64,000 nt of DNA from Cyanobacteria bacterium auto_48_18 (GTDB taxonomy: Bacteria > Cyanobacteriota > Vampirovibrionia > Obscuribacterales > Obscuribacteraceae): contig JAVHQC010000011.1 in NCBI GenBank assembly GCA_036170915.1, forward strand, positions 32,001-96,000. The letters are read 5' to 3'. The notes beneath the pieces were generated by a model. That model had not been told where the DNA came from. It ran no database searches and saw nothing but the letters and a program-made list of their open reading frames with translations. The translations under genes were made by a program, and so were the position numbers. The stretch's first letter is position 1, and the number at the start of each line of letters is the position of its first letter. Of this stretch, positions 2 through 19,633 are shown one piece after another.

Positions 2-367
2 TGCAATGCCGGTCGAATTTTGCATCATTTTTTGCGGCAGCTTAACAGCCCTGAGACTCTTGTAATTATTGTCGGCTATCAGGCCAAAGGATCAATTGGT
101 AGAGATTTAATTGCCGGAGTAAGCCAGGTGAAAATTCTTGGTGAGACTGTTCGTGTTCGCGCCACTGTCGCGGGCATAGACGGTTTTAGTGCCCATGCTG
201 ACCAGAAAGATTTGCTACGCTGGCTGCATCCTTGCGCTATGGGACGTCCGCGAGTAGTGCTCACTCACGGCGAGAGTCACTCAATTGACCAGCTTGCCTA
301 TCAAATTGATGAGGCGTTCAAGATTAAGTGCGAAAAACCTAAGCAAGGCGCAAAAATTCAATTTTGA
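2..367 (+). CDS. MBL-fold beta-CASP ribonuclease, C-terminal part (5' truncated by the window)
   Basis: Frame is open from base 2: CNAGRILHH, VGYQAKGS, FSAHAD and THGE motifs of the beta-CASP/RMMBL domain. Confidence 0.9.
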   Translation, partial: CNAGRILHHFLRQLNSPETLVIIVGYQAKGSIGRDLIAGVSQVKILGETVRVRATVAGIDGFSAHADQKDLLRWLHPCAMGRPRVVLTHGESHSIDQLAYQIDEAFKIKCEKPKQGAKIQF

Positions 368-386
368 AAGCGAACAAGTGAGATAA

Positions 387-3146
387 GTGGTGCCAGAAGA
401 AGCAAGTTTGATCAACGATACGCAGCCTGCCGTTTGTAGCAGCGAGAGTGAGCTTAGCGATCAGCCAGTGGCCTTGCTTCTCAAAGATCTCGGCACTGAT
501 AGAGTCTTGGGTTTACCTGCCGAAGTGGCAGCTCACAGGCTTGCCACCGATGGTACCAACGAGTTTGCTAAAGCACATTCGGTTAGTGCCTTCAATGTGC
601 TGCTTGAACAATTCAAATCGAGCGTTGTGATTTTGCTCATAGTTGCCACTGTGATATCACTTCTGATGCATGAATATCTTCAGGCCGCCGGAATTGTTGC
701 CGCCCTGGTAATTAATGCCACCATTGGTTTTCTGACTGAGTATCGAGCCAAAGTGTCTCTTGCGGCGCTGGCTAAAATGGCTGGCGCTGTCATTCGCGTC
801 AGGCGTGCTGGTCGTGAGTCAGAGTTGGCGGTGACCGAACTTGTGCGCGGCGATATCATTTTATTAGAGTCAGGAACTCGAGTACCAGCCGATTTGCGCC
901 TGATTGAAAGCGCTGCATTTTCCATCGATGAGTCAGCGCTTACCGGCGAAAGCGTTGCTGTTTTTAAAGATGCCGATGCCTTCAACACCGATGATAGGCT
1001 CGCTTCACAAGGCACCTGCGTTGTGAGCGGGCGCGCTGTAGGTGTGGTTATTGCTACCGGCGACAGAACCAAAATGGGTAAGCTGGGTGCAATTCTCCAT
1101 GATGTGCAGCTTGCTGAAACGCCCTTGACCAAGGCTCTAGACGCTCTCGGCCGCCAGTTGACCATGCTCGTGATGGTATTGTGTGTGGTTTTTGTTGTGC
1201 TCGGTTTATTGCGGCACACATCTCTTGAACGAATGTTGGAAACCAGCATCGCACTGGCAGTGGCAGCTATTCCTGAAGGTTTGCCAATTATTGCCACCCT
1301 GGCTCTGGCCGCCGGCATTAGAAGAATGATTGTGGCCAAGGCACTGGTCAGACGACTGGCCGCTGTTGAGACTCTGGGTTGCACCACGGTTATCTGTACT
1401 GACAAAACCGGCACACTGACTGAAAACAAAATGCTGGTAACGCACATAATTTTAGATCGTCAGGAATTACGTATTTCAGGACGAGGCTACGAACCCACCG
1501 GCGAACTAACCAGTATTCATGCAGATCTTACGTTGAGCAGTCCTGTAGTACGAGATTTTCTGGCTGCAGTCAGACTTTGCAATGATGCTCGGTTAGAAAA
1601 ACATGATGGGGCGGAAGGCTGGCATATTCACGGTGATCCTACAGAAGGCTCACTAATCACAGTCGCAGTTAAACTTGGTCTTGACGACGAGCAGCTTTGT
1701 GCCGACTTCCCGAGAGTGGCTGAAATTCCGTTTGATTTAAGCCGCAAAAGAATGACTACTATTCACGCCAGGCCTGACACAGGTCATGTGCTTTATCTTA
1801 AAGGGTCTCCTGAAGCTGTGCTTTCAGTCTGTCACCAGTGGCGTAGTGCCGAAGGCAATAAAGAACTAACTGCAGAGACAAGGGAATGGTTTCTCAATGA
1901 AAATGAGAAATTGGCACGGCAGGGGCTGAGAGTTCTAGCTGTAGCCACTAGCGATTTGGAAAAAGTTCCTGATGATCTGGACAGCTCTATTGTCGAAAAA
2001 GAACTGACATTGCTTGGTTTGGTAGGTATGGCTGATCGGCCGAAAGAGAATGTGGCTGAGGCAATTGCCATGTGTCACGATGCTGGTATTCGCCTGGTTA
2101 TGCTTACTGGCGATCAACCTGAGACAGCTAAGGCAATTGCTGTTGAACTAGGCATCACTGATGGTGTGACAGATCAAAAGTCGATTCTTTCGGGCAGTGA
2201 TCTGAACAAGCTAACAGATGAAGAGATAGTACGTGTGCTCGCTCAAGTTACTGTGTTGGCTCGCGTTACACCTGAGATGAAATTAGATATTGTCAAACGC
2301 TTACAAGCAGCAGGCCAGATAGTAGCCATGACCGGTGACGGTGTAAATGACGCACCGGCCTTACGGCAGTCAAACATAGGCATCGCTATGGGGCTTGCCG
2401 GCACAGATATGGCTCGTGAAGCGTCGGACCTTGTTATTACTGATGACAATTTTGCCACTATCGTCAAAGCTATTAAACAGGGAAGAATTATATACGGCAA
2501 TATTCGCCGAGCGGTTGGATATTTGCTTACTGCCAGCCTGACGTCGGTGGTTGCTATTGGTCTTGGTCTTCTTGCCAATACTGGGCTCTTTCTTGAGCCA
2601 TTGCAACTACTCTATCTAAATTTGATCATGCATGTCTTTCCCGGCCTGGGCATCGTGCTGCAAAACGATCCGGCTGACGTGATGAAACGCCCGCCACGAA
2701 AACAAAATCAAAACTTACTGGGCCGGTACGAACAATTTCAAATTCTTACTCGCAGTGCGCTAATTGGCATTATCACCCTTATAACCGTGGCCATAGACCA
2801 AATCTATTTCAATGCTGCCAATTGCGCCACTGTGGCCCTGTCAACCTTGTCGCTGGCTTTGATATTGCAATCATGGTCGTGGTTGAAAGCCGGAAGCATA
2901 AGCATTGAGCGCGGCCACCAGAGCCGGTTTAATGCTCCTATGGTGGGAAGCACCGTTATTAGTCTGGTTCTGGTGGTGGCAGCAATTTATCTGCCGCCAT
3001 TGCAGATAGCTTTAAACACAACCATTCTCAGTCAGGCAGAAATTATTCTTGTCTTGATTTCAGCCTTGTTTACATATGTGCTATCTATGCCCCTTTCGGG
3101 GCGGCTGACCAAGCCATTGACTGAAATGCTGAAAAGCGACCGTTAA
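387..3146 (+). CDS. Cation-transporting P-type ATPase (P2A, Ca2+-type; PacL/CtpF-like)
   Basis: TGES, PEGLP, DKTGTLT, KGSPE, TGDGVNDAPAL motifs; multiple TM segments. Confidence 0.95.
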   Translation: MVPEEASLINDTQPAVCSSESELSDQPVALLLKDLGTDRVLGLPAEVAAHRLATDGTNEFAKAHSVSAFNVLLEQFKSSVVILLIVATVISLLMHEYLQAAGIVAALVINATIGFLTEYRAKVSLAALAKMAGAVIRVRRAGRESELAVTELVRGDIILLESGTRVPADLRLIESAAFSIDESALTGESVAVFKDADAFNTDDRLASQGTCVVSGRAVGVVIATGDRTKMGKLGAILHDVQLAETPLTKALDALGRQLTMLVMVLCVVFVVLGLLRHTSLERMLETSIALAVAAIPEGLPIIATLALAAGIRRMIVAKALVRRLAAVETLGCTTVICTDKTGTLTENKMLVTHIILDRQELRISGRGYEPTGELTSIHADLTLSSPVVRDFLAAVRLCNDARLEKHDGAEGWHIHGDPTEGSLITVAVKLGLDDEQLCADFPRVAEIPFDLSRKRMTTIHARPDTGHVLYLKGSPEAVLSVCHQWRSAEGNKELTAETREWFLNENEKLARQGLRVLAVATSDLEKVPDDLDSSIVEKELTLLGLVGMADRPKENVAEAIAMCHDAGIRLVMLTGDQPETAKAIAVELGITDGVTDQKSILSGSDLNKLTDEEIVRVLAQVTVLARVTPEMKLDIVKRLQAAGQIVAMTGDGVNDAPALRQSNIGIAMGLAGTDMAREASDLVITDDNFATIVKAIKQGRIIYGNIRRAVGYLLTASLTSVVAIGLGLLANTGLFLEPLQLLYLNLIMHVFPGLGIVLQNDPADVMKRPPRKQNQNLLGRYEQFQILTRSALIGIITLITVAIDQIYFNAANCATVALSTLSLALILQSWSWLKAGSISIERGHQSRFNAPMVGSTVISLVLVVAAIYLPPLQIALNTTILSQAEIILVLISALFTYVLSMPLSGRLTKPLTEMLKSDR

Positions 3147-3168
3147 AGAGAAGACTACGGCTCTTTAA
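3143..3168. terminator. Possible bidirectional hairpin between convergent genes
   Basis: Perfect 8-bp IR TTAAAGAG...CTCTTTAA with a 10-nt loop, covering both stop codons; AT-rich and weak. Confidence 0.25.
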
Positions 3169-4505
3169 GACAAAAGTCTTCCATGAAGTTCAAAACATTG
3201 TTTCTCGAGAGAAGCACGGAAATTCGGGTGAGCAATTTCAACTAGAGCACGCATTCGCTGGGTCAAAGATCTGCCGTGAAGCTGTGCGATACCATATTCA
3301 GTGACAACATAGTGTACATCCGCCCTGGTTGTCACTACGCCGCTACCTGGTGCCAGGCAGGCAACAATGCGCGATACGGTGTCAGCTTTGGCTGTTGACG
3401 GTAAGGCGATAATTGCTTTGCCGTCTTTTGACCTTGACGCCCCTCTGATAAAGTCGAGTTGTCCACCAAAGCCGCTGTACAAATAAGATCCAATTGAATC
3501 TGATGAAACCTGGCCAGTGAGATCTACGGCCAGTGCTGAGTTAATTGACGTCATGCGGTAGTTTTGCGAAATTATAAATGGATCGTTGATGAAATCTACA
3601 GTTTGAAATTCTACTGCTGGGTTGTTATCAACAAACTGATAAAGTCTTTGCGTACCCATAATGAAGCTCACCGCAACTTTTCCGGGAAGTACGGTTTTTG
3701 CATCATTTGTCACTACACCAAGTTCCATTAAATCTACTATGCCATCAGACAGCATCTCGCTGTGAACACCCAGATCTTTTTTGGCTGTTAAATGTCCCAG
3801 CACTGCATTTGGTATCGCACCAATACCCAGTTGTATTGTTGCTTGATCGTCAACCAGCGAAGCTACATTTTTGCCAATGGCCTGATCAATCACACCGATA
3901 TTATCAGGAGCCAGCTCTGGTAATGGCCTGTCTGTTTCAACTATATAATCAAGCCTGCTCACATGCACAAAGGATCGACCAAGTGTGCGGGGCATTTGTT
4001 TGTTTACTTCAGCAATGACAATGCGTGCGGCTTTGCGGGCAGCGATTGTACAGTCGACAGATACACCATAGCTGCAATAACCATGGGCATCTGGTGGCGA
4101 TACTTGAATTAAGCAGACGTCGAGCGGCATTTGTTTGCTCTCGAATAACCTGGGTATTTCGCTCAAAAAAATTGGCGTATAGTCAGCCCGTCCCTCATTT
4201 ATAGCTTGCCGAACGTTAGCGCCGATAAACAGCGCGTGTACTTTAAAAGAGCCTTCATATTGCTTGTTTGCATATGCAGCTTTTCCCATGGTCATTATGT
4301 GCACGATTTGAACGTTTTGCAATTGGTTGGCCCGACCCACCATGGCGTCAATCAAGGGCTCAGGGGCAGCAGCATGAGAATGAATGTAAACTGAATCTCC
4401 TGACTTGATGGCCAATACTGCTTCTTCAGCAGAGACGAGTTTTTTATCGTAAGCTGCTTGCCATTCATTTTTTGGTGGAGTGGTTTCAGTTTGAGTTTGA
4501 GTCAT
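3165..4505 (-). CDS. Acetyl-CoA hydrolase/transferase family (4-hydroxybutyrate CoA-transferase-like)
   Basis: QLGIGAIP, HSEM catalytic Glu, GFGGQLDF and VVTEYG motifs. Confidence 0.92.
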   Translation of the reverse strand: MTQTQTETTPPKNEWQAAYDKKLVSAEEAVLAIKSGDSVYIHSHAAAPEPLIDAMVGRANQLQNVQIVHIMTMGKAAYANKQYEGSFKVHALFIGANVRQAINEGRADYTPIFLSEIPRLFESKQMPLDVCLIQVSPPDAHGYCSYGVSVDCTIAARKAARIVIAEVNKQMPRTLGRSFVHVSRLDYIVETDRPLPELAPDNIGVIDQAIGKNVASLVDDQATIQLGIGAIPNAVLGHLTAKKDLGVHSEMLSDGIVDLMELGVVTNDAKTVLPGKVAVSFIMGTQRLYQFVDNNPAVEFQTVDFINDPFIISQNYRMTSINSALAVDLTGQVSSDSIGSYLYSGFGGQLDFIRGASRSKDGKAIIALPSTAKADTVSRIVACLAPGSGVVTTRADVHYVVTEYGIAQLHGRSLTQRMRALVEIAHPNFRASLEKQCFELHGRLLS

Positions 4506-4520: not shown

Positions 4521-5018
4521 TCATGCTTGCTCACAGAGGGCGTGCTTGTTGATTTGGTCGATGATCTGGGCAGCTACTTCAGGCACCAGGTCAGCCACCA
4601 CATCACTTAAGTTTTCGAATAAACCAAAGTGACAACTACCAATGGCATAGAGCCAGGCTGGCGGATTGTGATTATACAAAGTCTGACTTAACTGCATTAG
4701 TGTCAGCGGGTTACAGCGATGACTGAGAAATATTGAACTGCCACATTCTAACTCTGAGCTGATGGATTTTTGCAAATCAATCTTTTTGGGTAGACCATCA
4801 GTGAGAGCAGCGCTAGCATCGATGAAAATCACAGCGTCGGCAATGTTAATATCTTCTAGCAGCTCAGGGGCGAGAATTCTGGTAGCAATCACTTTGATGG
4901 TAATTTGCATTGCCAGGTCATAGGCTGCTCGCTTTTTGATTTGCTCGGCTACAGCAATACCAAAACCGTCATCACCTGCCAGATCATTACCAAAACCAAT
5001 TACAAGCCAGTGCATCAA
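4521..5018 (-). CDS. hoxW: Hydrogenase maturation endopeptidase
   Basis: GFGNDLAGDDGFG, IDA and SH motifs; directly downstream of hoxH. Confidence 0.88.
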   Translation of the reverse strand: MMHWLVIGFGNDLAGDDGFGIAVAEQIKKRAAYDLAMQITIKVIATRILAPELLEDINIADAVIFIDASAALTDGLPKKIDLQKSISSELECGSSIFLSHRCNPLTLMQLSQTLYNHNPPAWLYAIGSCHFGLFENLSDVVADLVPEVAAQIIDQINKHALCEQA

Positions 5019-5033
5019 GAGTCCTATTTTAGC

Positions 5034-6443
5034 TTAGCGTTTAACCCTGTCTAAAACAGTACCACCCACATCAATTAGTTGTACGTCTAGAGCCATTTGT
5101 CCCACGGCATGTGTGGAGCAACTGAGGCAGGGGTCAAAAGTACGAATCACAGCTTCAATGCGATTTAAAATGCCTTCTGTCAGTTTGTCGTTTTTGATGT
5201 AATGCTTAGCAGCCTGAGTAATGCCTTTATTCATGGCTAAGCTGTTGTGTCCTGTGGCTATAATCAAGTCAGCATAGGTAATCAAGCCGTTATCGTCAAT
5301 TTTGTAATGGTGCATGAGCGTGCCACGCGGTGCTTCAGAAATACCAAAACCCTCGTGAGCATTGGCGGCGGCATGAGCGCGCACATGACTGTCTAAAATC
5401 ACGTCGTCGCTCAGCAACTGTTCAATCATTTCAAAGGCGTAGAGAATTTCAATCAGTCTTGCCAGGTGATAATGAAAAGCACTTTTGTGATCGAGTTTTT
5501 TAAATTCAGTCAGTGCTTGATCTGCTCTGGGAGTGCCACAAGTTTTGGCGAGGTGCAGCCGCGCCAGGGGCCCAACTCTATAGAGACCAGCGGGATAACC
5601 CTGCGGTTTATAATAAGGAGATTTCAAATAGCTGTGTGGATTAATGGCCTCAGCGACGATGGTTTTATAATCTTCGGCTGGTAAATCTGCCACCACTGTT
5701 CCTTGATCGTCAGCCAAGCGCAAGCGTCCATCATAGGTTTCAAGCTCATCGTGACTTCCTATCAGACCCATAAACAAGCCCGGAAAATTGGCAAAAACTG
5801 CTATTTCTTCACTAAACTTTTCTAGTGCGACGCTAAACCATTTGATTGTTTGTTCGGCTATTTGAATGGCTTCCGGCAATTTTTTCAAAATGTAATCACG
5901 ATGTTCAGCGCTTAATGCGTGACTGACTCCCCCAGGTACTACCCAACCCGGGTGTATCTTTTTGCCGCCTAGAATTTCGATGATTTCCTGCCCCAGCGCA
6001 CGCAACTGCACTCCACTTCGAGCCAGCTCAGGATTTTCCCTGGCCACTCCAACGATATTGCGTTTGGCTGGGTCCGAATCCATGCCTAAAAGCAGATCTG
6101 GCGAAGAGAGATAGAAAAAACTGAGAGCGTGTGACTGCGCTATTTGAGCCAGATTTATAATTCGTCTTAATTTGACGGCAGTAGGGGGGATGCGTACCGA
6201 CATCAACATGTCGCAAGCTTTGGCTGAGGCAACTAGATGGCTGACGGGGCAAATGCCGCAAATTCTGGCCATTAATGAAGGCATTTCATGAAAGGGTCTG
6301 CCCTCAGCAAATTTTTCAAAACCACGCAACTGCGTGACGTGAAAAAGCGCTTCCTCCACTTCGCCTTGATCATCAAGGTGAATGGTTATTTTTGAGTGTC
6401 CTTCGATTCTGGTGACCGGATCAATAGTAATTATCTTGCTCAT
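5034..6443 (-). CDS. hoxH: Bidirectional NiFe hydrogenase large subunit (group 3d)
   Basis: TRIEGH, RICGIC (L1) and DPCLSCSTH (L2) followed by a cleavable C-terminal tail. Confidence 0.95.
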   Translation of the reverse strand: MSKIITIDPVTRIEGHSKITIHLDDQGEVEEALFHVTQLRGFEKFAEGRPFHEMPSLMARICGICPVSHLVASAKACDMLMSVRIPPTAVKLRRIINLAQIAQSHALSFFYLSSPDLLLGMDSDPAKRNIVGVARENPELARSGVQLRALGQEIIEILGGKKIHPGWVVPGGVSHALSAEHRDYILKKLPEAIQIAEQTIKWFSVALEKFSEEIAVFANFPGLFMGLIGSHDELETYDGRLRLADDQGTVVADLPAEDYKTIVAEAINPHSYLKSPYYKPQGYPAGLYRVGPLARLHLAKTCGTPRADQALTEFKKLDHKSAFHYHLARLIEILYAFEMIEQLLSDDVILDSHVRAHAAANAHEGFGISEAPRGTLMHHYKIDDNGLITYADLIIATGHNSLAMNKGITQAAKHYIKNDKLTEGILNRIEAVIRTFDPCLSCSTHAVGQMALDVQLIDVGGTVLDRVKR

Positions 6444-6467
6444 GCAGACTTCCTAAAATATGCTTGC

Positions 6468-7007
6468 TTAGAGGCCAAAACGAGTGATACCGTGCAGATC
6501 TGGTGTTCTTCCCGCCAAAAGCTCTGTTAGTACCGTGTGAATAGTATCGGCTGAAGGTGGGCAACCAGGTACGTAGACGTCGACTTTAACAACGGTGTGA
6601 ACCGGCCGCGCGTGAGCGCAAAGCAAAGGCACCGTATCTGGTTGCTTGGGTAAGCCGCCGTTGCTTACTCTTTCAAGGATGGCATTTACTCCCAGTGGAT
6701 TGCGCAAAGACGGTACATTAGCGGTTACTGCACAATCACCCAGTGAGACTAAAATTTTGGTATGCTGGCGTACCATCAGTATTTTTTCAAGGTCACTTTC
6801 GCTGCTGACTGCCCCTTCCACAAGGGTAATATCAACATTGTCGGGAAAGTCTTTTCGATCAACTAATGGGCTATAAACAAGATCCACTTTTTCAAGCAGA
6901 GTGAGCAGGCGATGATCCATATCGAGCAATGACATGTGGCAGCCCGAGCAGCCATCTAACCATACCGTGGCCAGAGTTGGCAAAGCTTCGACTTCAGTTC
7001 TGCTCAT
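6468..7007 (-). CDS. hoxY: Bidirectional hydrogenase small subunit
   Basis: WLDGCSGCHMS, GDCA and PGCPP motifs. Confidence 0.95.
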   Translation of the reverse strand: MSRTEVEALPTLATVWLDGCSGCHMSLLDMDHRLLTLLEKVDLVYSPLVDRKDFPDNVDITLVEGAVSSESDLEKILMVRQHTKILVSLGDCAVTANVPSLRNPLGVNAILERVSNGGLPKQPDTVPLLCAHARPVHTVVKVDVYVPGCPPSADTIHTVLTELLAGRTPDLHGITRFGL

Positions 7008-7711
7008 GATTTTTCCGCTTTCATGTCGGCCAGATAGACGAGGAATTTTGGATCTTTAACCATTTCTCCGGCTGCCTTACCTTTTTCGAACAAGGCGCCA
7101 GTGGGACACGCCTCTACACATTTGCCGCAACTGGTGCAACTGGTAGATTCACCCCAGGGCTGATTCAAATCAGAAATTAATTGTGATTGAATACCGCGAC
7201 CGGCGACATCCCAGGTATGGGCTCCTTCTACTTGATCACAAACACGAACGCAGCGTGTACAGAGAATGCAGCGGTTGGCATCGAAGATAAACAGATCGTG
7301 AGAAGCATCCACGGCTCTGGCCGGGTAACGATATGGTAGGGAGATATGGTCAATTTTTAAATCAGAAGACATGTCTTGCAATTCGCAATTATTATTTGAA
7401 ACACAAACTGAGCAGATATGATTGCCTTCAGTGAAAAGCATTTCGACGATTGTCTTACGGTAGCCACTCAAGCGTTCTGATTCTGTGTTGACCACCATGC
7501 CTTCGCTTACTTTAGTGACGCAGGCAGCCGAAAGTTTTGCACTGCCTTCGATTTCTACCAGACACAGACGGCAGCCGCCCCATTCTGATATGCCATCAAG
7601 TTGGCAAAGTGTAGGAATTTCTATGCCGTGTTCCCGGGCCACGTGCAAAATGTCTTCGTCTTCGCGGCCGCTCATTTCTTGGCCGTTTATTTTTAAGGTG
7701 ACAACGCGCAT
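7004..7711 (-). CDS. hoxU: Bidirectional hydrogenase diaphorase Fe-S subunit
   Basis: IPTLC, CRLC, HICSVC and two CxxCxxC ferredoxin motifs; start moved to 7711 because AGGAGG lies just upstream. Confidence 0.93.
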   Translation of the reverse strand: MRVVTLKINGQEMSGREDEDILHVAREHGIEIPTLCQLDGISEWGGCRLCLVEIEGSAKLSAACVTKVSEGMVVNTESERLSGYRKTIVEMLFTEGNHICSVCVSNNNCELQDMSSDLKIDHISLPYRYPARAVDASHDLFIFDANRCILCTRCVRVCDQVEGAHTWDVAGRGIQSQLISDLNQPWGESTSCTSCGKCVEACPTGALFEKGKAAGEMVKDPKFLVYLADMKAEKS

Positions 7712-9935: not shown

Positions 9936-10120
9936 AACTGGATTATTACTCCGGTATCTGGTCTATTAATTTTCAATTTTGAATTTCGACCATGAGTTTA
10001 CTCGAAATTGATTATGAATCTCGAAGTTTAGTCTAGTTCGATTGGAAAAATAAGGTATCAACCGCAAGAGTGATTTGAGTTGTTTTGATTTGATTATTCG
10101 ATGGCGTGAGCAAAATCAAA

Positions 10121-10900: not shown

Positions 10901-11057
10901 CAATCTTTGCCATGGGAAGATTTGCTCAATATACACCAGTCCAGTTACAAATTTGCTCTTGAGCTCGATTGAAAAAAAACCGCTCTAAAGTATGATGTGC
11001 GCCACTAACCAGGGCTGGTAAATTGCAGTAGTGACGAGCTCAAAGAGTTGACTCTAA

Positions 11058-11552: not shown

Positions 11553-11554
11553 CA

Positions 11555-12490: not shown

Positions 12491-12594
12491 TTTCAACCTT
12501 CTCCACCGTTGGCAAGTATAATTAACCGTACAAGCAAAGGACAACTCATCTGCTGCACCAGCATTATTATGCAGCTTACTTTTCAAGCTTAATA

Positions 12595-12610
12595 TCGACC
12601 TAAAGGTTGA
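12595..12610. promoter_or_regulatory. Putative NarL-family regulator box
   Basis: TCGACC-TAAA-GGTTGA near-perfect palindrome between divergent USP genes; related boxes recur across the island. Confidence 0.55.
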
Positions 12611-12713
12611 ATCTTTAGAGAAGAATGCCGATTTGTTTGATGCTTAAGGTGGATGGCGTTTGCAGATAAATGATGGAAAATACAGTGAACGCACAGGTTT
12701 AAGGAGCGATGGA

Positions 12714-13229
12714 ATGAAAGTATTGATTGCAGTGGACGATTCACTTTGTTCACACGAGGCAGTAAGCGTTGTGGCTAATCGACCCTGGGCTGATGGCACG
12801 CAGTTTAAAATTGTTCACGTGGTAGAGCCCATTGCCGCACAATATGGGCTGGTTGCTCCTGAGGCTGTTAGTCTAATGCTAGAGGCCGAGAAAAAGCTTA
12901 AGGCGTATGGTGTCAAATTTACAACCGACATCGGCGACTATCTCAAAGAAATCTTCGGCGACCAACAAGTGAGCTCAGTCGTTATTGGTGGCTATATTGC
13001 CGACTCAATTATTGAGCTGGCAAGAGATTGGCATGCTGATGTGATAGTAGTCGGCTCACATGGTCGTACTGGTTTGGACAAAATTTTGCTCGGTAGCGTT
13101 GCCGAAAAAATCGTCAACCGCTCACATTGTTCTGTTGAAGTGATCAAAATGAAAATCAAAAAAAATGATGACACATCTTCTAAAGATGACGGAAGTAATG
13201 CACTCGCAAAACAAAAACAAGCCGTATAG
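12714..13229 (+). CDS. Universal stress protein
   Basis: MKVLIAVDDS and VVGSHGRTG...LGSVAE motifs; AAGGAG SD at 12701. Confidence 0.93.
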   Translation: MKVLIAVDDSLCSHEAVSVVANRPWADGTQFKIVHVVEPIAAQYGLVAPEAVSLMLEAEKKLKAYGVKFTTDIGDYLKEIFGDQQVSSVVIGGYIADSIIELARDWHADVIVVGSHGRTGLDKILLGSVAEKIVNRSHCSVEVIKMKIKKNDDTSSKDDGSNALAKQKQAV

Positions 13230-13255: not shown

Positions 13256-13714
13256 ATGAAAGTAATAATTGCCGTCGACCAAACAGATAACTGGAAGCAA
13301 ATTATTGAAGCTACAGTTAAACGCTCATGGCCGTCAGATACCATTTTTAGAATTCTTACTGTGGTCGAGCCTGGTGCTGATGCTCTGGACAAAACAAAAA
13401 CGCATCAAGCACATACTGCCGATAGGGTGGTGCATGAAGCACGGGCACTAATGTTTGAGCATTTGCCCGGATGCACTGTTTATAGCGAAGTACGAAAGGG
13501 CAAAGCCGCCGATGAATTAGTCACTGTTGCCGCCAATTGGATGGTTGACAAAATCATATTGGGAACCCATGGTCGCAAGGCAAATCGCCTGATACCAGCG
13601 ACGGTGCCGCAGCTTGTCAGTCAAAATTCTTGTTGCTCAGTTGACCTTGTTAAATTAACACCAGTAAAAGCTTCTGTGGGCGAATCATCACTAACCCAGG
13701 CCACTGCTCAATAG
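13256..13714 (+). CDS. Universal stress protein
   Basis: MKVIIAVD, ILGTHGR and CSVDLV motifs. Confidence 0.85.
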   Translation: MKVIIAVDQTDNWKQIIEATVKRSWPSDTIFRILTVVEPGADALDKTKTHQAHTADRVVHEARALMFEHLPGCTVYSEVRKGKAADELVTVAANWMVDKIILGTHGRKANRLIPATVPQLVSQNSCCSVDLVKLTPVKASVGESSLTQATAQ

Positions 13715-13742
13715 AGCACCACCTTTTAGACAAGGAAATACA

Positions 13743-14534
13743 ATGACAGGCACCCACTGCAATAAGTTAACACTGGCCAAGACTCATATTCAAGTTGCCC
13801 GCATGGCATATAGCGCCGGAGAATATACCGCCGCCTTCAAAAATTTGAATACGGCTGAGCGTGAACTGGAGGAACATGATCTTTCTGTGGACGACTTAAC
13901 GCTTTTTGATCTGAGAAAATTCTTTGGCAAAGTGCGTGTTGCACTCGGCATGTTCGGTCAAGCGGAGGGTGATTTTCAGCGGGCGCTCGACCTGGCCAGG
14001 ACCTCTTCTGAAATTCCCGAAAAAAGTTTGTTTTCCATAAAGCGTCATCTGGCCGATTGCATTCGTTTGAGAAGCCGATTCGACCAAGCTGAGTCTATTT
14101 ACCGTGAACTTATAGGCGCTTTAGAAGATAAAGAACCGCCAATAGGCAATCAACTTGCTAAATCATACATGGGTCTTGCAACTGTGCTTATAGATAGTGG
14201 TAAGACAGGGGAAGCGCGACCCTTTATCGACAAAGCCATTCAATTAATTGAAGACGGACCAGGCCGCAAGTGTTTTTGGTATGGCAGAGCACTGATTGTT
14301 AAAGCACGGTTGTGCTGTGCTATTGGTCAGAAGCTGGAGGCACATGAGCTATTTCAACACGCACTGTCTATCGTCGAACCATTAATTGGCGCAGAACACC
14401 CGCTGGCGCGCTTGCTTGAGCGAAAGAAGAGCGAGCCTGTTCACCTGATTTTTGCAGAATTGAAAAACATAGAAAAACAGCTAAAAGACCACCAGCTAGA
14501 TAGTGAACATTCAATTTCAGGCAGTCTGCTTTAA
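13743..14534 (+). CDS. Tetratricopeptide repeat protein
   Basis: Repeated LA/LG...A...Y/F..AL helical pairs; GAEHP kinesin-light-chain-type motif. Confidence 0.75.
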   Translation: MTGTHCNKLTLAKTHIQVARMAYSAGEYTAAFKNLNTAERELEEHDLSVDDLTLFDLRKFFGKVRVALGMFGQAEGDFQRALDLARTSSEIPEKSLFSIKRHLADCIRLRSRFDQAESIYRELIGALEDKEPPIGNQLAKSYMGLATVLIDSGKTGEARPFIDKAIQLIEDGPGRKCFWYGRALIVKARLCCAIGQKLEAHELFQHALSIVEPLIGAEHPLARLLERKKSEPVHLIFAELKNIEKQLKDHQLDSEHSISGSLL

Positions 14535-14966
14535 CGAAACCAAAATCACTGAACAGGGCCCCTCGTTAACAATGGCTCGAGCAATGCTACCAAGGGTAAA
14601 TTTGTTTGCTCCGCGACGGCCATGAGCGGCTACAGCTATAGAATCTGCCGACCATCTCTTTGCATTTTCAACAATAGTGTCAACGACAAAGCCGTTTTGT
14701 ACCTCTGCTGTTACTACTGACTGAGGAAAAATCGAGCGCAGCATTTCTGCCGTTTCGTGCACAACCTTCTCTCCATCTGCAAACGCTTTTTGTTTAATTT
14801 CATCGAGCATTGGTCCAGGAAGGATGCTCATGTAGCTCCCCACCGTCAAAGGCTCAACTACGTGTAGAACCTTCAGTTCGTCGCCTTCGGCTAGCTTAAA
14901 GCCGCGCAAATAGTCAACTATATTTTGACTCGAACCACTCTGATCAATGGCAACTAATATTTTCAT
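14517..14966 (-). CDS. Universal stress protein
   Basis: MKILVAIDQS and AAHGRRG...LGSIA motifs. Confidence 0.9.
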   Translation of the reverse strand: MKILVAIDQSGSSQNIVDYLRGFKLAEGDELKVLHVVEPLTVGSYMSILPGPMLDEIKQKAFADGEKVVHETAEMLRSIFPQSVVTAEVQNGFVVDTIVENAKRWSADSIAVAAHGRRGANKFTLGSIARAIVNEGPCSVILVSLKQTA

Positions 14967-15057
14967 GGCTTTTCCTCTTTTCTGATTATCTACTAGCGCC
15001 AGCCTTCTAGCTTCCATCGCATAGCCTATCTTAAGTAGGCCGCGATGAGAACAGTTT

Positions 15058-15077
15058 AGTCATTCTAAAGGATGACT
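15058..15077. promoter_or_regulatory. Putative NarL-family regulator box
   Basis: AGTCATTC-TAAA-GGATGACT (7 of 8 positions palindromic) between the divergent USP and globin genes. Confidence 0.55.
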
Positions 15078-15180: not shown

Positions 15181-15702
15181 ATGGCTCTAAATGTAGCACT
15201 CCTAACAGAAAGTTTTGAGCGCGCCAAACGTGAGAGCGGTGGTACAACCAGTCTGGGCATGAGCTTTTACAAAAGGCTTTTTGAGAAATACCCATCTGTA
15301 AAACCATTATTTACGAAGCCTCCGGAAGTTCAGCACAAAATGTTGATGTCTGCTCTGGCCACAATTGTTGCCCAGGCAGATCAATCAGATCAGCTCGTTC
15401 CTTATCTTCATGCGCTTGGTATTCGGCATCTTTTATATAAAACCGAAAATGCTCATTATTCAGCTGTGGCCGAGAATCTTCTTGCTGTTCTGCGCGAGCA
15501 TTTAAGCAAGGAAGGTGAATGGACCGACGCCATGCAAGAAACGTGGACAGCCGCGATTGCCTTGATTGTCAAAGTGATGATGGAAGCGTCGAATAATCCT
15601 GAAGCATACGCCGAAGAATTGGCAAATCATGGCTATGGTCCAAACGGATTGGTAATTCAGAAATGTGGTGTATCAACTGATGGCAGACCTGAAGTTTCCT
15701 AA
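15181..15702 (+). CDS. Single-domain globin (Vgb/flavohemoglobin globin-like)
   Basis: FY (B10 Tyr), PLF (CD1 Phe), Gln at E7, LGIRH proximal His, HY..V motif; no reductase domain. Confidence 0.9.
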   Translation: MALNVALLTESFERAKRESGGTTSLGMSFYKRLFEKYPSVKPLFTKPPEVQHKMLMSALATIVAQADQSDQLVPYLHALGIRHLLYKTENAHYSAVAENLLAVLREHLSKEGEWTDAMQETWTAAIALIVKVMMEASNNPEAYAEELANHGYGPNGLVIQKCGVSTDGRPEVS

Positions 15703-16102
15703 TGTGCGACTTCAGCTTCATGATCTGATCGCTAAAGATAAACATTCGCCACCATATGCAATGGCACACCTGGCCGTACTTTCTGGTCTCATTCCAGAGC
15801 ATGCATTAAAAGCTATTGTCGCGGTTGAGCCGCTGGACATGTGCCTCTGCATGGCATCTGCCGAACAAATTATTGAAGAGTACTTAAGAAACTTACCAGC
15901 GAAGACTAACTTCCCCTCAATCAAGGCATCTCACATTGGTTGCAGTTTGGCTAAAGCAGCTGAAACGCATATTAAAAGCACCACAAGCGATAACTTTCTA
16001 TCTGCTGGTATGAACCTGCCCAGCCACGATTGTCATCGCTTTGCTCCCATACTTTTTGATCTTATGCTTCAACAATTGATGCGTTATCCGGGCCTTGAGT
16101 AA
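15665..16102 (+). CDS. Hypothetical protein
   Basis: 145-aa ORF filling the gap; overlaps both neighbours by about 40 bp; no motif recognised. Confidence 0.35.
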   Translation: MVYQLMADLKFPNVRLQLHDLIAKDKHSPPYAMAHLAVLSGLIPEHALKAIVAVEPLDMCLCMASAEQIIEEYLRNLPAKTNFPSIKASHIGCSLAKAAETHIKSTTSDNFLSAGMNLPSHDCHRFAPILFDLMLQQLMRYPGLE

Positions 16103-17714
16103 GAAGTTTAAAACTAAATGTCGCCCCAGGGCCTGGGCTATCACGGCACCAGATTCTACCGCCGTGTCCTTCAATAATGCGCCGACAAAGGTAAAGCCCT
16201 AACCCGGTACTAGCATAGTAACGACCCGTCGAACCAGCTTGCCAAAATCGCTGAAATAATTTTGGCCGATTTTCCTCTGGTATACCCTTCCCTGTATCAC
16301 TGATACTAAATGTAGTGTACTGATCATCTTGTTTCAAACTAACTTCAACCGAGCCGCCGTCAGGTGTAAACTTCAATGAGTTGTCAATCAGATTCTGAAT
16401 TACCCGACGAATTTCCTCCTGATCGCAGCGAACTTCTTGCGATGCTTCTGGTAGTTTTGCGCTCAATGTCACGCCCTTCTCTTTAGCGAGGGGCATAATC
16501 TCGCTGAGCAATTTTGTGATTAGTTTGACTAAATCGCATTTCTGCAGGTGAAATTCTTTAACGCCGCTATCGAAACGATAAACATCGAGAAGGGTTTGAA
16601 CAAGGCTGTAAAGAGCAGTATTGCTCTGCAAAATTGTCTCTAGCACAACTGTCTGTGATTCGGGTATGGGCCCGAAGTCGCCGTCGAGCATGAAACGCAC
16701 CGCTCTATTGGTGGCGGATACTGGCGTCTTTAGATCGTGGGTTAAGGTAGCAACAAAATCTTCGCGCTGCTGTTGCAGCAAAACGCTGGCGGTCGTATTG
16801 GTAAACATGGCCACCAGGCCCGTCATATTGCCGTCATTGTCTTTAACTGGCCATGCAAGCCAGTCCCAATAATTATTATCGCCACTACCTTTTTTTGAAA
16901 GTTTTAGCGGGTCACCAGTATGCTTGATAAACTGGCCGCCCTTTAGTACTGCTTCAAAAAGTTGAGGGGTCAAGGCCGGTGCAAATTCGAAAAGAGGCTT
17001 AGCGACTAGATCAGCACGGCTGCCACCATCAACTTGTTCGACAAACTTGTCGTTGCATTCGAGACAAATCATGTCGCGGTTTAAGCTGATAATGCCCACA
17101 GGAGAATTTTCTAGAATAGACTTGGTTACTCGCCTCTCTGTTTCTAACTCGCGAATTGAATCTGTGTGATATCTCAAGGCAGCTTCTTTAGCGGAGATGT
17201 AGCAATCTATTGCCAGGCCCATATCTAAAAACACCAATTTCATCAGTGCTGAAATAGCCTTACACAGCTTGTCCGAGTCACCTTCATATTTGCCTATTAC
17301 TTTTGGTAAAAACCATCCTAAAACCCGATTATAGGCGCCGATATACCACTTGGGGTCAAGCTCGATGCGATGATGCGTGGCACCAACCCTCAATCTATCA
17401 TTGGCATAATCGGTGCCGTAATTTCCTTTGGTTAGCCTGACAAAATAGTCTTTTTGAGCTGCTTGAGCCCTTTTTAGGATTTGTTCATTGGGAAAATAGC
17501 TACGTGTCTCTTCAAAGGTTAGAAAATGCGCATACATTGACTCGATCAATTCATCAATATGATCAGTAACCAGCTTGTCAAGCTCGAGTTCAATCATCTC
17601 TTCGTCGCTAGCCGAAAATTCTAGCCAACGTTTGCGCAGCTCAACTTCTTCAGCGTTTAGCGTCAATGCCGAGGAAGGCCTGTCGGGCTCTCTCTTCAAT
17701 TCAAACTTCCCCAT
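16062..17714 (-). CDS. Globin-coupled sensor histidine kinase (sensor globin-PAS-HisKA-HATPase)
   Basis: HemAT-like N-terminus (MYAHF, RVGATHHRIELDPKWYIGAY); PAS; THDLKTP H-box; NLIDNSLKF, DTGKGI and GLGL boxes. Confidence 0.9.
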   Translation of the reverse strand: MGKFELKREPDRPSSALTLNAEEVELRKRWLEFSASDEEMIELELDKLVTDHIDELIESMYAHFLTFEETRSYFPNEQILKRAQAAQKDYFVRLTKGNYGTDYANDRLRVGATHHRIELDPKWYIGAYNRVLGWFLPKVIGKYEGDSDKLCKAISALMKLVFLDMGLAIDCYISAKEAALRYHTDSIRELETERRVTKSILENSPVGIISLNRDMICLECNDKFVEQVDGGSRADLVAKPLFEFAPALTPQLFEAVLKGGQFIKHTGDPLKLSKKGSGDNNYWDWLAWPVKDNDGNMTGLVAMFTNTTASVLLQQQREDFVATLTHDLKTPVSATNRAVRFMLDGDFGPIPESQTVVLETILQSNTALYSLVQTLLDVYRFDSGVKEFHLQKCDLVKLITKLLSEIMPLAKEKGVTLSAKLPEASQEVRCDQEEIRRVIQNLIDNSLKFTPDGGSVEVSLKQDDQYTTFSISDTGKGIPEENRPKLFQRFWQAGSTGRYYASTGLGLYLCRRIIEGHGGRIWCRDSPGPGATFSFKLLTQGPDNASIVEA

Positions 17715-17758
17715 CTTATTGGCAGGCTATAATTATGACTCTTCGGTAAAGGCTCATT

Positions 17759-18499
17759 ATGTCTGACCAAACACCTTCTGCGACTGTTAACTCCATAAAT
17801 GTATTGCTGGTTGAAGATCATGTTCTGACGAGATTGGGTCTCAGAGCTGCTTTGCAGAGAACTCAAGATATCCATGTAGTTGGTGAAGCCTCTAATGGAG
17901 AGGAAGCGATCGGCCTGGCCGAGTCATTGCAACCGCATGTCATTCTTATGGATGTTGGTATGCCGGTGATGGATGGCATTCAAGCGGCTGCGAAAATCAT
18001 CGGACGACAACCGGCTATTAAAATTATCATGCTCACGCAGCATGATAATGAGTCAGACATTATGGCTTCTCTAGGTGCAGGTGCCAGTGGCTATTGCCTG
18101 AAAGATGTGGAGCCTGAGAGGCTATACATGGCTATTCGGTCGGTTAATGCTGGTGATGCGTGGCTCGACGCGGCCATAGCGAGCAAGGTGCTGAGACATT
18201 ATTCACCAGTGGTGGCACCAACTAAAGTTAAAACGACTGCCCCAGAAGCAAAGTCTGCGCCCAACCACGTAGATGAAAGTAGTGCTGATATCGACCGCCC
18301 CGCACCAGATGCTCTTTCTCCTCGAGAACTAGAGGTGATGAAGCTGATTGTTGATGGTCTCTCCAATCAAGAAATCAGTGACAAGTTATTTGTCTCACTG
18401 GCCACGACCAAAACCCACGTGCGCAATATTCTCAACAAGCTGGCTGTGGACGATCGTACGCAGGCAGCTGTGCATGCGATGCGTCGTGGGCTGGTTTAA
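17759..18499 (+). CDS. NarL/FixJ-family response regulator (REC plus LuxR HTH)
   Basis: VEDH, LMDVGMP, GYCLK; LSPRELEV...GLSNQEI...KTHVRNILNKL. Confidence 0.95.
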   Translation: MSDQTPSATVNSINVLLVEDHVLTRLGLRAALQRTQDIHVVGEASNGEEAIGLAESLQPHVILMDVGMPVMDGIQAAAKIIGRQPAIKIIMLTQHDNESDIMASLGAGASGYCLKDVEPERLYMAIRSVNAGDAWLDAAIASKVLRHYSPVVAPTKVKTTAPEAKSAPNHVDESSADIDRPAPDALSPRELEVMKLIVDGLSNQEISDKLFVSLATTKTHVRNILNKLAVDDRTQAAVHAMRRGLV

Positions 18500-18616
18500 C
18501 AGCAAGCTCGAGCTATGCACCGTAAGGCTGATTTGCTTCGACTAGTCCTAACGGATGGCGAGAGCAACAGTTAACGCTGCTATGGTAATCATGTCGACCG
18601 ATTAACAGGACATATC

Positions 18617-19633
18617 ATGAACGAAATTATCAATGAGCTACTGCAGTGTGAGAACGAACCGGTGCTTACCCTGATAGTTGATCTGGACATGAATCGAAAA
18701 GAGAACGAGGCAAAACTAAAACACCTTGCATCAGAAGTGCAACATCTGAAATTAGATCTCCCCGATTCGACCCGCGACATACTTTTTAAGCGGCTTGAAT
18801 TGATTTTGCAAAGTATTGATGGAACATTGTTTAATGGCAGCGTTGCCATTTTTGCTGCTGCCAACTTCGGCAAAATTTTTCCCTTGCATTACCACGCTAA
18901 ACCTCGAGTGGTTGCCGACAATGGTTTTGCTCTCACTGAAATAGCTTACAGCACCAGCACGTTCCCTCTATGCCACGTCTTAGTTTTTAGCTGCCATGGA
19001 GTGCGGGTATTTAGCAAAAATGGAGAGCATGTATCAGAAATTGCAGACAACCCTGCCGCCGCTCATGCCACTCATCTGCTCAAAGCATTGGCTCACAGCG
19101 GACACGTAAATGAAGCCAAAAACAGTGGACGTGGAGTAAAGGCATGCTCTGATCCGAAACTCAAGGCGGCGATTTCTGCTCTGTCAGAAACCCTTGAAGG
19201 ACCAATGATCATTGCTGGAGCCTCGCACGCCGGAGAGTTGCCACCATCGTTGGACAGCCGAAGCATTGCCACCGTAGATGGTTGCTACGAGAACGCATCA
19301 ATAGCTGATATTGCAAAAGTCGCGCAAGAAGCATGCGAGAAAGCAAGCACCGAAAGAGCACAAAATTACCTGGAAGCCATCGAAGCATTTTTGCATGAGA
19401 AGCGTCTTGGCTCTGGCAACGATGAAATTGAGCAACTAATTTTGGCAGGCCGGGTGCAGACACTTTATGTGGAGGATGATGCGGCTATCAGCATTAAGGC
19501 TTCCGAGCAACATAAACTCTCGGAAGAAGATCGAATGATAGCGTCGGCTCTGCGATACAAAGGCGAAATCGTCTTTCTGCCAAAAGAGAGTTTGTCGAAC
19601 TATGGTGCTATGGCCGCAGGCTTGCGATTTTAG
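18617..19633 (+). CDS. baeRF/aeRF1-like protein (Balon-like ribosome hibernation factor candidate)
   Basis: SVAIFA, PRVVADNGF, GRVQTLYVE and C-terminal GEIVFL...GAMAAGLRF pattern of bacterial aeRF1 homologues; no GGQ. Confidence 0.7.
   Translation: MNEIINELLQCENEPVLTLIVDLDMNRKENEAKLKHLASEVQHLKLDLPDSTRDILFKRLELILQSIDGTLFNGSVAIFAAANFGKIFPLHYHAKPRVVADNGFALTEIAYSTSTFPLCHVLVFSCHGVRVFSKNGEHVSEIADNPAAAHATHLLKALAHSGHVNEAKNSGRGVKACSDPKLKAAISALSETLEGPMIIAGASHAGELPPSLDSRSIATVDGCYENASIADIAKVAQEACEKASTERAQNYLEAIEAFLHEKRLGSGNDEIEQLILAGRVQTLYVEDDAAISIKASEQHKLSEEDRMIASALRYKGEIVFLPKESLSNYGAMAAGLRF

Follow-up and report, generated by a model that had tools for sequence, protein, structure and literature searches.

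A predicted low-oxygen switch of a globin-PAS kinase and a NarL-type regulator across the Obscuribacterales

How do the Obscuribacterales, a branch of the cyanobacteria's dark sister group that excerpts of PMC4040986 describe as metabolically versatile, respiring and fermenting, distinguish oxic from anoxic conditions? We found no account in the literature searched. The question is raised by a 64,000-nucleotide stretch of one contig (the window), in which a sequence-only reading had seen a DosR-like regulon, gathered in a single island under a globin-coupled kinase. Profile searches and inspection of open reading frames found every gene it had named where it had placed them (Table 1), and its assignment of the host to a non-photosynthetic cyanobacterial relative held, the closest named records being Ca. 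Obscuribacter and Obscuribacterales. Our genome comparisons lean towards an answer in which an order-wide pair of globin-PAS kinase and NarL-type regulator acts as a low-oxygen switch for palindrome-bearing hydrogenase, stress and dormancy genes. If true, it would give the non-photosynthetic sister group of oxygenic cyanobacteria its first mapped O2-sensing transcription circuit.

Table 1 Genes and candidate operators of the island, in window coordinates
Feature	Position	Strand	Remarks
beta-CASP metallo-beta-lactamase RNase, 3' end	2..367	+	full gene 463 aa
P2-type cation ATPase	387..3146	+	DKTGT, TGES motifs
Acetyl-CoA hydrolase/CoA-transferase	3165..4505	-	final gene of hox run
hoxE-F-U-Y-H-W, bidirectional NAD-linked group 3d [NiFe] hydrogenase and protease	4521..9935	-	
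Candidate operator before hoxE	10056..10075		14.6 bits; TAGACT 30 bp downstream towards hoxE
Diheme c-type cytochrome	10121..10936	-	two CxxCH
Weak candidate operator between divergent cytochrome genes	10978..10997		9.9 bits
Monoheme c-type cytochrome	11058..11552	+	
Long universal stress protein (USP)	11555..12586	-	
Candidate operator between divergent USP genes	12593..12612		15.6 bits
USP	12660..13229	+	ATP-binding G-2x-G-9x-GS motif
USP	13256..13714	+	
TPR protein	13743..14534	+	
USP	14517..15017	-	
Candidate operator between USP and globin	15058..15077		18.8 bits, the genome's third-highest score; neither side has a -10-like hexamer at +29 to +31
Single-domain 3/3 globin	15181..15702	+	flavohemoglobin-like globin domain; Tyr30, His83
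Orphan gene	15665..16102	+	likely start 15680, 140 aa
Globin-coupled histidine kinase	16062..17714	-	protoglobin-PAS-HisKA-HATPase
Divergent kinase/regulator spacer	17715..17758		44 bp; perfect TATAAT towards regulator
NarL/LuxR-type response regulator	17759..18499	+	REC plus GerE
Two tandem candidate operators before baeRF gene	18514..18560		13.2 and 11.1 bits
baeRF3/Balon-like factor	18617..19633	+	without GGQ, NIKS or HP dipeptide

The island and its order-wide core

The cluster extends about 12.2 kb leftward beyond the window, through a resolvase-like ORF, three further USP ORFs, two further cytochromes c and hypBAEDCF. A third unit, with the gene order cytochrome c, RNase, ATPase, starts there, and its RNase gene begins 1 kb left of the window. 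Gene clustering exceeds chance: six of the ten ORFs retrieved from the assembly with the USP189 query fall within the island's 32 kb, as do both long USPs, retrieved with a different query, and all four cytochromes of the island's family. The kinase globin, single globin, HoxH, CoA-transferase and baeRF are each single-copy in the assembly. Island GC is 47.1%, against 47.8 ± 0.9% for the genome's 32-kb windows, so there is no sign of recently acquired DNA. A HicAB pair borders the right end and the resolvase-like ORF the left; the catalytic Ser of the resolvase-like domain is kept in only 2 of 24 copies and is absent from the island's own.

The kinase was found in 91 of 107 Obscuribacterales genomes and in 38 of the 39 good ones, such that the proposed single island gives way to a kinase-regulator pair that is the core of the order. 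Pfam delimits protoglobin (residues 21-177), PAS (201-310), HisKA (316-384) and HATPase (431-537) domains in the kinase and no GAF domain. Heme-pocket residues Tyr61 (B10) and His114 (F8) and the phospho-site His326, within H-D-x-x-T, are invariant in all 47 aligned homologues, in which the N, G1 and G2 boxes are also conserved and the PAS domain carries a nearly invariant CxxC (43/47 and 46/47 for the two cysteines). In an alignment with the globin kinase AfGcHK (structure 5OHE), Tyr61 and His114 fall on its Tyr45 and His99. The match to the AfGcHK globin is distant (E = 1.5e-4), and the nearest relatives outside the order are globin-STAS and globin-GGDEF proteins, so the polarity of AfGcHK need not be inherited. 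The core is of the HisKA type (PF00512), with VicK/WalK-like proteins as best structure matches. The pair likely senses oxygen through heme.

The regulator carries Asp65, Thr93 and Lys115, has an HTH that is nearly invariant across the order and matches VraR (E = 3e-42), NarL (1e-36) and DevR (1e-27). Regulator and kinase genes are transcribed divergently in 40 of 41 regions and in 24 of 25 genera. The assembly holds eight LuxR-type and four clear CRP-type HTH matches, and none of its six CRP-type matches falls inside the island.

Synteny comparison bore out the expectation that the genes are co-conserved, in the form of a shuffled set: gene order varies between genera, while the same set remains within 20 kb of the kinase. 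The genomes compared are kin, and the counts therefore overstate independence, with USPs in 37 of 41 regions, the hydrogenase large subunit in 26, the P2-ATPase in 25 and the CoA-transferase in 17, accompanied by hyp genes, PEP synthase and the orphan. The hydrogenase at this place in relatives is either group 3d (6) or sulfhydrogenase-type 3b (19), and the similarity cluster of the TPR protein recurs near the kinase in 11 genera. Three other genes of the proposed regulon are present but are minority neighbours, namely the hibernation factor (3/41), the single globin (3/41) and the beta-CASP RNase (8/41). A quinol NO reductase was likewise near the kinase in only 3 of 41 regions; it occurs, with the single-domain globin and a fatty-acid desaturase, among neighbours that bear the palindrome described below.

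The orphan gene, overlooked in the earlier reading, is present in 26 of 41 regions and encodes a helical protein with conserved Cys55, Cys57 and Cys118 and no match in Pfam, NCBIfam, Atlas or by fold. It has its own palindrome in 17 of 19 upstream regions and hence looks like an output. The hydrogenase belongs to group 3d, with HoxEFUYH, a protease and two CxxC Ni motifs in the large subunit; HoxU is over its NCBIfam cut-off (394 vs. 333) and HoxE slightly under (219 vs. 224). As for the supposed aeRF1-like factor, the absence of GGQ and NIKS and the best family (NF052287, E = 2e-20) agree with that assignment, but the protein scores below both family cut-offs (73 vs. 330 bits in NCBIfam, 22 vs. 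31.5 for Pfam baeRF3). It also lacks the HP dipeptide, a decoding-site motif, and by its sequence is classed as Balon-like, not as a family member.

A palindrome at the promoters

The promoters of island genes have in common a new 7-2-7 palindrome, ATCATCCT-N2-AGGATGAT, whose core, TCA-N10-TGA, was found de novo in 112 of 414 island upstream regions compared to 40 of 404 others. A scoring matrix trained without the window's genus found sites in 29 of 51 island upstream regions of that held-out genus and in 4 of 53 others (139/8280 in shuffles). The matrix places a site before nearly every transcription unit of the island, except in the kinase/regulator spacer, where the operator is absent. In the window's own genome, 5 of 16 intergenic matches of at least 14 bits, including the top-scoring one, lie in the island, where 0.08 are expected. 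When the window alone was searched with a plain IUPAC pattern, matches were not above chance (8 vs. 5.4 expected, 17/100 shuffles).

Of the 142 de-duplicated sites, 34 have a -10-like hexamer at +30, against a background of 4.0 ± 2.0 (maximum 9), an example being the TATGGT 30 bp past the second tandem operator before the baeRF gene. NarL spacings of 29 and 32 bp correspond to -41.5 and -44.5 (PMC9314961), and on this sequence geometry the palindrome, with a weak -10 box 30 bp downstream, is in an activator position.

Beyond the training windows, group 3 hydrogenase operons had 26 intergenic sites in 22.2 kb (12/12 regions), and other hydrogenase loci none in 15.8 kb (0/8). Per-gene counts, which outside genus g1 include training sites, were 10 of 29 upstream and 1 of 30 downstream for phosphoketolase and, more weakly, 7 of 19 and 3 of 18 for baeRF. 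Distant baeRF genes (L214, L216, L217 and L218; 20-24% identity), on different contigs from the kinase or more than 100 kb away from it, also have sites upstream. HSP20 (HspX-like) genes, with a site in only 1 of 30, are not supported as targets, and in the window's own genome neither the two oxygen reductases nor the NO reductase, which lies behind an Rrf2-type gene, have one. Site density peaks around the kinase-regulator pair, with as many as 21 within 20 kb; near the kinase, counts drop to 0-3 in three regions from a single family and in four further genomes. Five genomes without a detected kinase (88-94% complete) had 6, 2, 3, 4 and 0 exact pattern matches, where about 1-2 are expected.

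The proposed circuit and its alternatives

A DosR-like regulon is likely present, as co-conserved genes, a common candidate operator and parallel outputs suggest; the characterised globin kinase, AfGcHK, has the polarity opposite to the one that the DosR analogy calls for. In the circuit that we propose, the pair would be made constitutively from the consensus -10 promoter without operator, and the globin would bind heme and O2 via His114 and Tyr61, leaving the O2-bound kinase silent or a phosphatase. Deoxy kinase would phosphorylate His326 and then Asp65 of the regulator, whose phosphorylated dimer would occupy the 7-2-7 site, centred near -42.5, and recruit RNA polymerase at weak promoters, a single site often serving two divergent genes. 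Predicted outputs are a group 3d or 3b hydrogenase reoxidising NAD(P)H to H2, fermentative carbon flow through CoA-transferase, phosphoketolase and PEP synthase, the USPs and P2-ATPase, and in some lineages a Balon-like factor parking ribosomes. With sensor, regulator, operator and targets named, the circuit could be tested in vitro and in E. coli with no need to culture the organism, and could be read in oxic and anoxic metatranscriptomes of soils, lakes and wastewater reactors.

The deoxy-ON step contradicts the only biochemical precedent, since AfGcHK is active in the oxy and inactive in the deoxy form (and active also with CO or ferric heme). A kinase that is ON in O2 needs an inverter and none was found here, so we predict reversed polarity, which the inserted PAS domain may enable. 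Such polarity bears on how globin sensors couple to kinases and, if true, would make this the first deoxy-active globin kinase. It is unlikely, in our judgement, that regulon and regulator are as proposed while the kinase keeps the AfGcHK polarity and something else reverses the sign, be it an unlinked hybrid kinase of the NmpRSTU kind, the Cys-bearing orphan or activation by the unphosphorylated form of the regulator. AfGcHK and NmpU are both oxy-ON, NmpS inverts the signal, and the orphan, with its three cysteines, lies tail-to-tail with the kinase in 16 of 42 regions and 11 genera; against this, none of the 42 regions has a receiver-plus-kinase hybrid, the orphan's own site is output-like and the globin is remote from AfGcHK. 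We give similarly little credence to another factor, whether a second NarL-type paralogue or an unlinked protein, binding a real palindrome while the kinase pair acts elsewhere or only upstream. A paralogue on contig C4 does have a similar recognition helix and a 17.6-bit site adjoining its start, pattern matches persist where the kinase was not found, the -42 position is typical of CRP/FNR factors too, and an Anr/Fnr-type factor is presumed to control the lxa island of Burkholderia. The 7-2-7 geometry, however, fits a NarL-type dimer, unlike the TGA-N6-TCA lxa/Anr motif, the sites crowd around the kinase pair, and the five kinase-less assemblies are incomplete and their excess of matches small.

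That the signal is NO, CO or redox state, or that the regulon is O2-induced as protection on re-aeration, is highly improbable. The site-bearing globin, NO reductase and desaturase, the activity of AfGcHK with CO or ferric heme and the PAS CxxC would fit such signals, but globin and NO reductase are each rare neighbours, the genome's own NO reductase and oxygen reductases have no site, and the constant targets (group 3 hydrogenases, CoA-transferase, phosphoketolase and USPs) serve under low oxygen in M. smegmatis and Burkholderia. It is scarcely credible that generic stress genes under no common control are gathered here by mobility or chance: the bordering resolvase-like ORF and HicAB pair and the differing gene content between genera speak for it, whereas ordinary GC, the mostly missing catalytic Ser and the kinase's spread across the order, on which we also rejected a mobile genomic island, speak against it, and the held-out motif enrichment largely refutes it. 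Returning to the low-oxygen switch, a bolder version of it, held tentatively and at slightly less than even confidence, is that it would be the Obscuribacterales' own DosR, evolved separately from those of mycobacteria and from the myxobacterial system, comprising a deoxy-ON globin-PAS kinase, a NarL-type activator, a new 7-2-7 operator, an order-wide fermentation and dormancy regulon and two undescribed parts, the three-cysteine helical protein and a dead serine-recombinase domain.

Relation to described systems

DosRST sensors bind heme in a GAF domain, the DosS kinase core is of the HisKA_3 type and the DosR box differs from the 7-2-7 palindrome. The Obscuribacterales system resembles DosS/DosT-DosR in joining a (here predicted) heme sensor kinase to a NarL/LuxR-type regulator and in its predicted outputs, which include group 3b hydrogenase, PEP synthase, USPs, a cation ATPase and a Balon-family factor; DosR of M. 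smegmatis controls group 3b hydrogenase and PEP synthase. It differs in having protoglobin-PAS instead of GAF-heme and HisKA instead of HisKA_3, on which grounds DosRST membership was rejected, and in a regulator to which VraR and NarL are nearer matches than DevR and which is apparently not autoregulated. The two systems are convergent, not homologous. Such an additional, independent arrival at DosR-like outputs would be relevant to the recurrent co-regulation of USPs, group 3 hydrogenases, PEP synthase, P2-ATPase and hibernation factors.

The earlier suggestion that no such system had been described does not stand, as NmpRSTU, in the available portion of PMC11841059, is a globin-coupled kinase system over a hypoxia regulon with USP and P-type ATPase. 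AfGcHK of Anaeromyxobacter and NmpU of Myxococcus xanthus are, like the present kinase, soluble, with an N-terminal sensor globin, B10 Tyr and F8 His (excerpts of PMC11841059 and PMC8697598, which also show the regulon likeness). Unlike them, the Obscuribacterales kinase has a PAS domain between globin and kinase core; its partner is NarL-type, whereas Nmp uses a hybrid-kinase relay (NmpS) to the NtrC/sigma-54 activator NmpR; the operator differs; and fermentation and dormancy genes are the predicted targets, in place of the cbb3 oxidase and HemN that NmpR activates.

The lxa locus of Burkholderia cenocepacia, in the portion available of PMC3721108, shares several USPs, a cation ATPase, a metal-dependent RNase, cytochrome c and an ATP-dependent Zn protease in one cluster tied by a common palindrome. 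That motif resembles Anr/Fnr boxes, in contrast to TCA-N10-TGA here, and the locus is strain-variable, whereas the kinase-regulator pair is order-wide; the word 'hydrogenase' is absent from the text of that paper. We rejected an lxa-type Anr/Fnr island on the motif and on the lack of any CRP-type match inside the island. The hydrogenase itself resembles cyanobacterial Hox (group 3d) in hoxEFUYH with hoxW and hypA-F, an enzyme used in fermentation under anoxia according to passages of PMC6349859; here, by contrast, it alternates between genera with a group 3b counterpart and sits behind the palindrome.

Distribution and gene neighbourhood of the globin-coupled kinase

Family scanning of the sensor kinase gave the domain order protoglobin-PAS-HisKA-HATPase, and against solved structures its globin matched HemAT, a Geobacter-type globin, a stressosome protein and the Anaeromyxobacter globin kinase AfGcHK (E 5e-8 to 1.5e-4). 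Kinase Tyr61 and His114 aligned onto Tyr45 and His99 of AfGcHK, which the accessible text of PMC8697598 describes as the O2-recognising and proximal residues, respectively. Together with His326, both were invariant in all 47 homologues aligned out of the 120 listed. Of 107 genomes in the order, 91 had the globin-PAS part (32/38 genera); among those with completeness of at least 90%, it was found in 38/39. Two globin-PAS kinases were found in some genomes (G105, contigs C2 and C6; G070, C9 and C78; G016). Because the named records most similar to the kinase were Ca. Obscuribacter, Obscuribacterales and Melainabacteria entries, with some matches under other, older labels, the host can be placed among non-photosynthetic cyanobacterial relatives, as the sequence-only reading had supposed.

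Globin-kinase fusions were absent from the 10 loci read in other orders of the class, where the fusions seen were HemAT-like chemoreceptors (L220-L237). One family (f6) had protoglobin matches in 0/85 genomes. Elsewhere in the phylum, a search of 400 more genomes gave 3 with a match, confined to the globin part. The nearest outside globins were fused to STAS, GGDEF/EAL or MCP domains, and a search for longer fused forms gave none at E 1e-10, which is weak evidence. We infer that the kinase is a separate fusion of its own rather than a descendant of AfGcHK.

All genes named in the sequence-only reading were recovered by the ORF list and family scans of the window. Leftward, the cluster extends past the window edge as far as contig position 19.8 kb, and on the right it ends with the Balon-like baeRF gene, followed by HicAB; its 31.9 kb have a GC content of 47.1%, within the range of its own genome. 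For comparison, we read one region of up to 40 kb in each of 41 genomes (25 genera), picked by long contigs and genus spread among the 90 others with a kinase match. The regulator was divergent from the kinase in 40/41 regions, and a universal stress protein (USP) gene lay near the kinase in 37/41, with a median of 5 USP ORFs in the 35 regions of at least 30 kb. A [NiFe] large subunit occurred in 26 regions: HoxF accompanied it in 6 (group 3d) and beta/gamma subunits of the sulfhydrogenase type in 19, the group 3b assignment of the latter reflecting best NCBIfam matches below cut-off. Other neighbours were hyp genes (25 regions), P2-ATPase (25), the orphan gene (26), cytochrome c (22), CoA-transferase (17), PEP synthase (16), a resolvase-like gene (16), FtsH (14) and GNAT (11). 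The proposed gene set was thus co-conserved, except that baeRF and the single globin (3/41 each, as for NO reductase) and the beta-CASP RNase (8/41) were minority members. Gene order and orientation varied among genera, and some genomes retained only the kinase-regulator pair plus two or three USPs. Given this variation and these neighbour counts, the window is best read as one packing of a predicted regulon.

Several further genes were seen near the kinase. HSP20 paralogues lay about 4-40 kb away in a dozen genomes (G070 C9, G013 C4, G050 C508, G093 C151 and others), and the fatty-acid desaturase family occurred nearby in 5 genera; desaturase genes with an upstream operator-like site were found in two genomes (L165:1701-2507, L190:2491-3423). 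A stand-alone GNAT adjoining USPs (L053:17747-18322) was closest to the mycobacterial acetyltransferase Pat (E 9e-25), and 7/7 GNAT upstream regions carried a site. In mycobacteria, Pat acetylates a USP.

Candidate operator and predicted regulon

Dyad counting in upstream regions yielded nested palindromes that together make up ATCATCCT-N2-AGGATGAT. For training a symmetric matrix we used 163 sites, which came from 31 genomes in 21 genera and left out the window's genus. In that held-out genus, 29/51 upstream regions of the island carried a site vs 4/53 others (shuffles, 1.7%). At 14 bits or more, the window's own genome had 46 matches, 16 of them intergenic, and 5 of these fell in the island vs 0.08 expected; at 10 bits, 7/54 did so vs 0.26 expected. 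Plain pattern search of the window alone showed no enrichment, and a generic promoter and terminator scan performed at chance level.

Genes, candidate operators and other loci of the cluster and window
Feature	Position	Strand	Context	Basis
Resolvase-like ORF, multi-domain USP, long USP, cytochrome c, USP	left of window		L001	
hypB-A-E-D-C-F, cytochrome c, beta-CASP gene start	left of window		L001, continued	
Candidate operator	left of window		before resolvase-like gene	
Candidate operator	left of window		before USP-cytochrome unit	
Candidate operator, 21.1 bits, genome's best	left of window		between hypF and cytochrome-RNase-ATPase unit	
Matrix match	7146		inside hoxU	
Candidate operator	10056		before hoxE	matrix scan
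Candidate operator, weak	10978		between cytochromes	matrix scan
Candidate operator	12593		between USPs	matrix scan
Candidate operator	15058		between USP and globin	matrix scan
Orphan gene	15665-16102	+		
Globin-coupled histidine kinase	16062-17714	-		
NarL-type regulator	17759-18499	+	divergent from kinase	
Candidate operators, two	18514, 18541		before baeRF	matrix scan
baeRF	18617-19633	+	right end of cluster	
HicA-HicB toxin-antitoxin pair	19673-20424	-	directly right of cluster	
Two-domain heme peroxidase, catalase-peroxidase-like	33288-35648	-	upstream intergenic site absent	
RtcB ligase, RF-1-domain protein	37567-39296	+	adjoining; ribosome-repair-type pair	
HrpB helicase, alpha-2-macroglobulin-like gene, receiver-Ser/Thr kinase fusion	44483-53112	+		
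nadA and L-aspartate-oxidase-like gene	55271-61760		divergent from NrtR regulator; isochorismatase and NADAR genes close by	

NarL sites have the same 7-2-7 architecture, with distances of 29 bp and 32 bp corresponding to -41.5 and -44.5 in the accessible text of PMC9314961. After reduction to a single site for each genus and gene (142 sites), a -10-like hexamer peaked 30 bases past the site centre (34/142 vs a background of 4.0 ± 2.0). From this spacing and that distance convention, the candidate operator would be centred at about -42.5, the position of activator-polymerase contact. Such a hexamer does not accompany every window site, and the one at 15058 has none at the expected distance. 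Sites were found upstream of the kinase in 0/33 cases and of the regulator in 0/37, and the spacer between the two held a perfect TATAAT in most genomes.

The operator also recurred beyond the 20-kb training windows. Group 3 hydrogenase loci elsewhere had intergenic sites in 12/12 cases (two 40-64 kb off on the kinase contig, two >1.4 Mb off, the others on different contigs), and by reading, the site headed the hydrogenase run in 10/12; eight loci of another hydrogenase type, presumably uptake, had 0. Among the best 30 loci per search, sites were upstream vs downstream of phosphoketolase in 10/29 vs 1/30 and of baeRF in 7/19 vs 3/18; for two of three distant baeRF genes outside that count, upstream sites were seen directly. 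The same comparison rejected HSP20 as a target in its best-matching clade (1/30 vs 2/30), which is not the clade of the kinase-linked paralogues, and the own-genome HSP20 has a site 297 bp upstream. Terminal oxidases were likewise rejected, the three heme-copper/bd loci of the own genome having no site.

In genomes without a kinase match a few pattern matches remained, comparator genomes gave 0-10, and the reversed pattern was too low to serve as a control (0.36 vs 1.16 expected). The own genome had 6 matches to a pattern with 6-bp spacing vs 7 for 4-bp spacing, and in G105, 3/4 exact pattern matches lay on the contig of the second kinase copy. The regulator helix was almost invariant, and a family with an altered helix still has sites (L316). 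Operator and regulon are well-supported predictions.

Proposed polarity and comparison with known systems

The predicted targets that stayed constant were NAD(P)-linked hydrogenases of the cytoplasm, enzymes of substrate-level metabolism, and USPs. A search for RNA runs over window positions 9000-18900 listed none. Because of these target types and the activator position of the site at weak promoters, the simplest reading is that the linked regulator activates its targets at low oxygen. A second NarL-type regulator in the own genome (C4, L189:2061-2770), whose first start codon lies 4 bp from a 17.6-bit site, makes cross-talk or alternative binding of the palindrome possible. Low-oxygen activation by the linked regulator would clash with the polarity of AfGcHK, described in the accessible text of PMC8697598 as active in the oxy and inactive in the deoxy form. 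Myxococcus inverts the globin-kinase sign through the hybrid kinase NmpS, as far as the available part of PMC11841059 goes. Given this clash and the absence of an NmpS-like hybrid kinase from the 42 regions, we predict that the kinase polarity would be reversed relative to AfGcHK, as the PAS insert would permit. Linkers can flip the sign of a kinase, and H-D-x-x-T motifs generally confer phosphatase activity; here this motif would give the kinase phosphatase activity in air. Protein-family assignments are the only guide to the direction of H2 flow, the pumped ion, the substrate of the CoA-transferase and putative ribosome binding.

The predicted system would work like mycobacterial DosRST and, judging from the accessible text of PMC3721108, like the lxa locus, but tested as a member of neither; its kinase is globin-coupled, yet it is not an Nmp system. 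According to the parts available, DosR switches on both Hyh, a group 3b hydrogenase, and a PEP synthase (bioRxiv 10.1101/2023.09.11.557286), and Rv2629 and Msmeg1130 are Balon homologues induced by hypoxia (PMC10901736). Obscuribacter metabolism is treated in PMC4040986 and PMC6349859, whose accessible portions do not contain the word globin. A literature search, with most subscription journals outside its reach, found no paper on the kinase, regulator or operator in the Obscuribacterales lineage.

Orphan and resolvase-like proteins

The orphan had 43 homologues with only hypothetical names and no Pfam family, and those with a named source came from Obscuribacterales or Melainabacteria. Conserved cysteines at three positions point to a possible metal or Fe-S site. 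The model (pLDDT 79.8) has six helices and had no Foldseek match at E 0.001, from which a new fold does not follow; VIA-align gave a best Z of 6.4, with none at 8, and Atlas returned no usable match. The resolvase-like protein (L001:5762-6202) consists of a catalytic-type domain alone (Pfam resolvase; TP901-1 integrase, E 0.002), with no DNA-binding domain; the catalytic Ser was present in 2/24 copies, some copies had an N-terminal CxC extension, and 10/15 upstream regions of the gene carried a site. In G004, a perfect-pattern site (L174) lay between an Rrf2 regulator and a unit of cytochrome c and a molybdopterin oxidoreductase, which we take, by its motif, to be nitrate-reductase-like.
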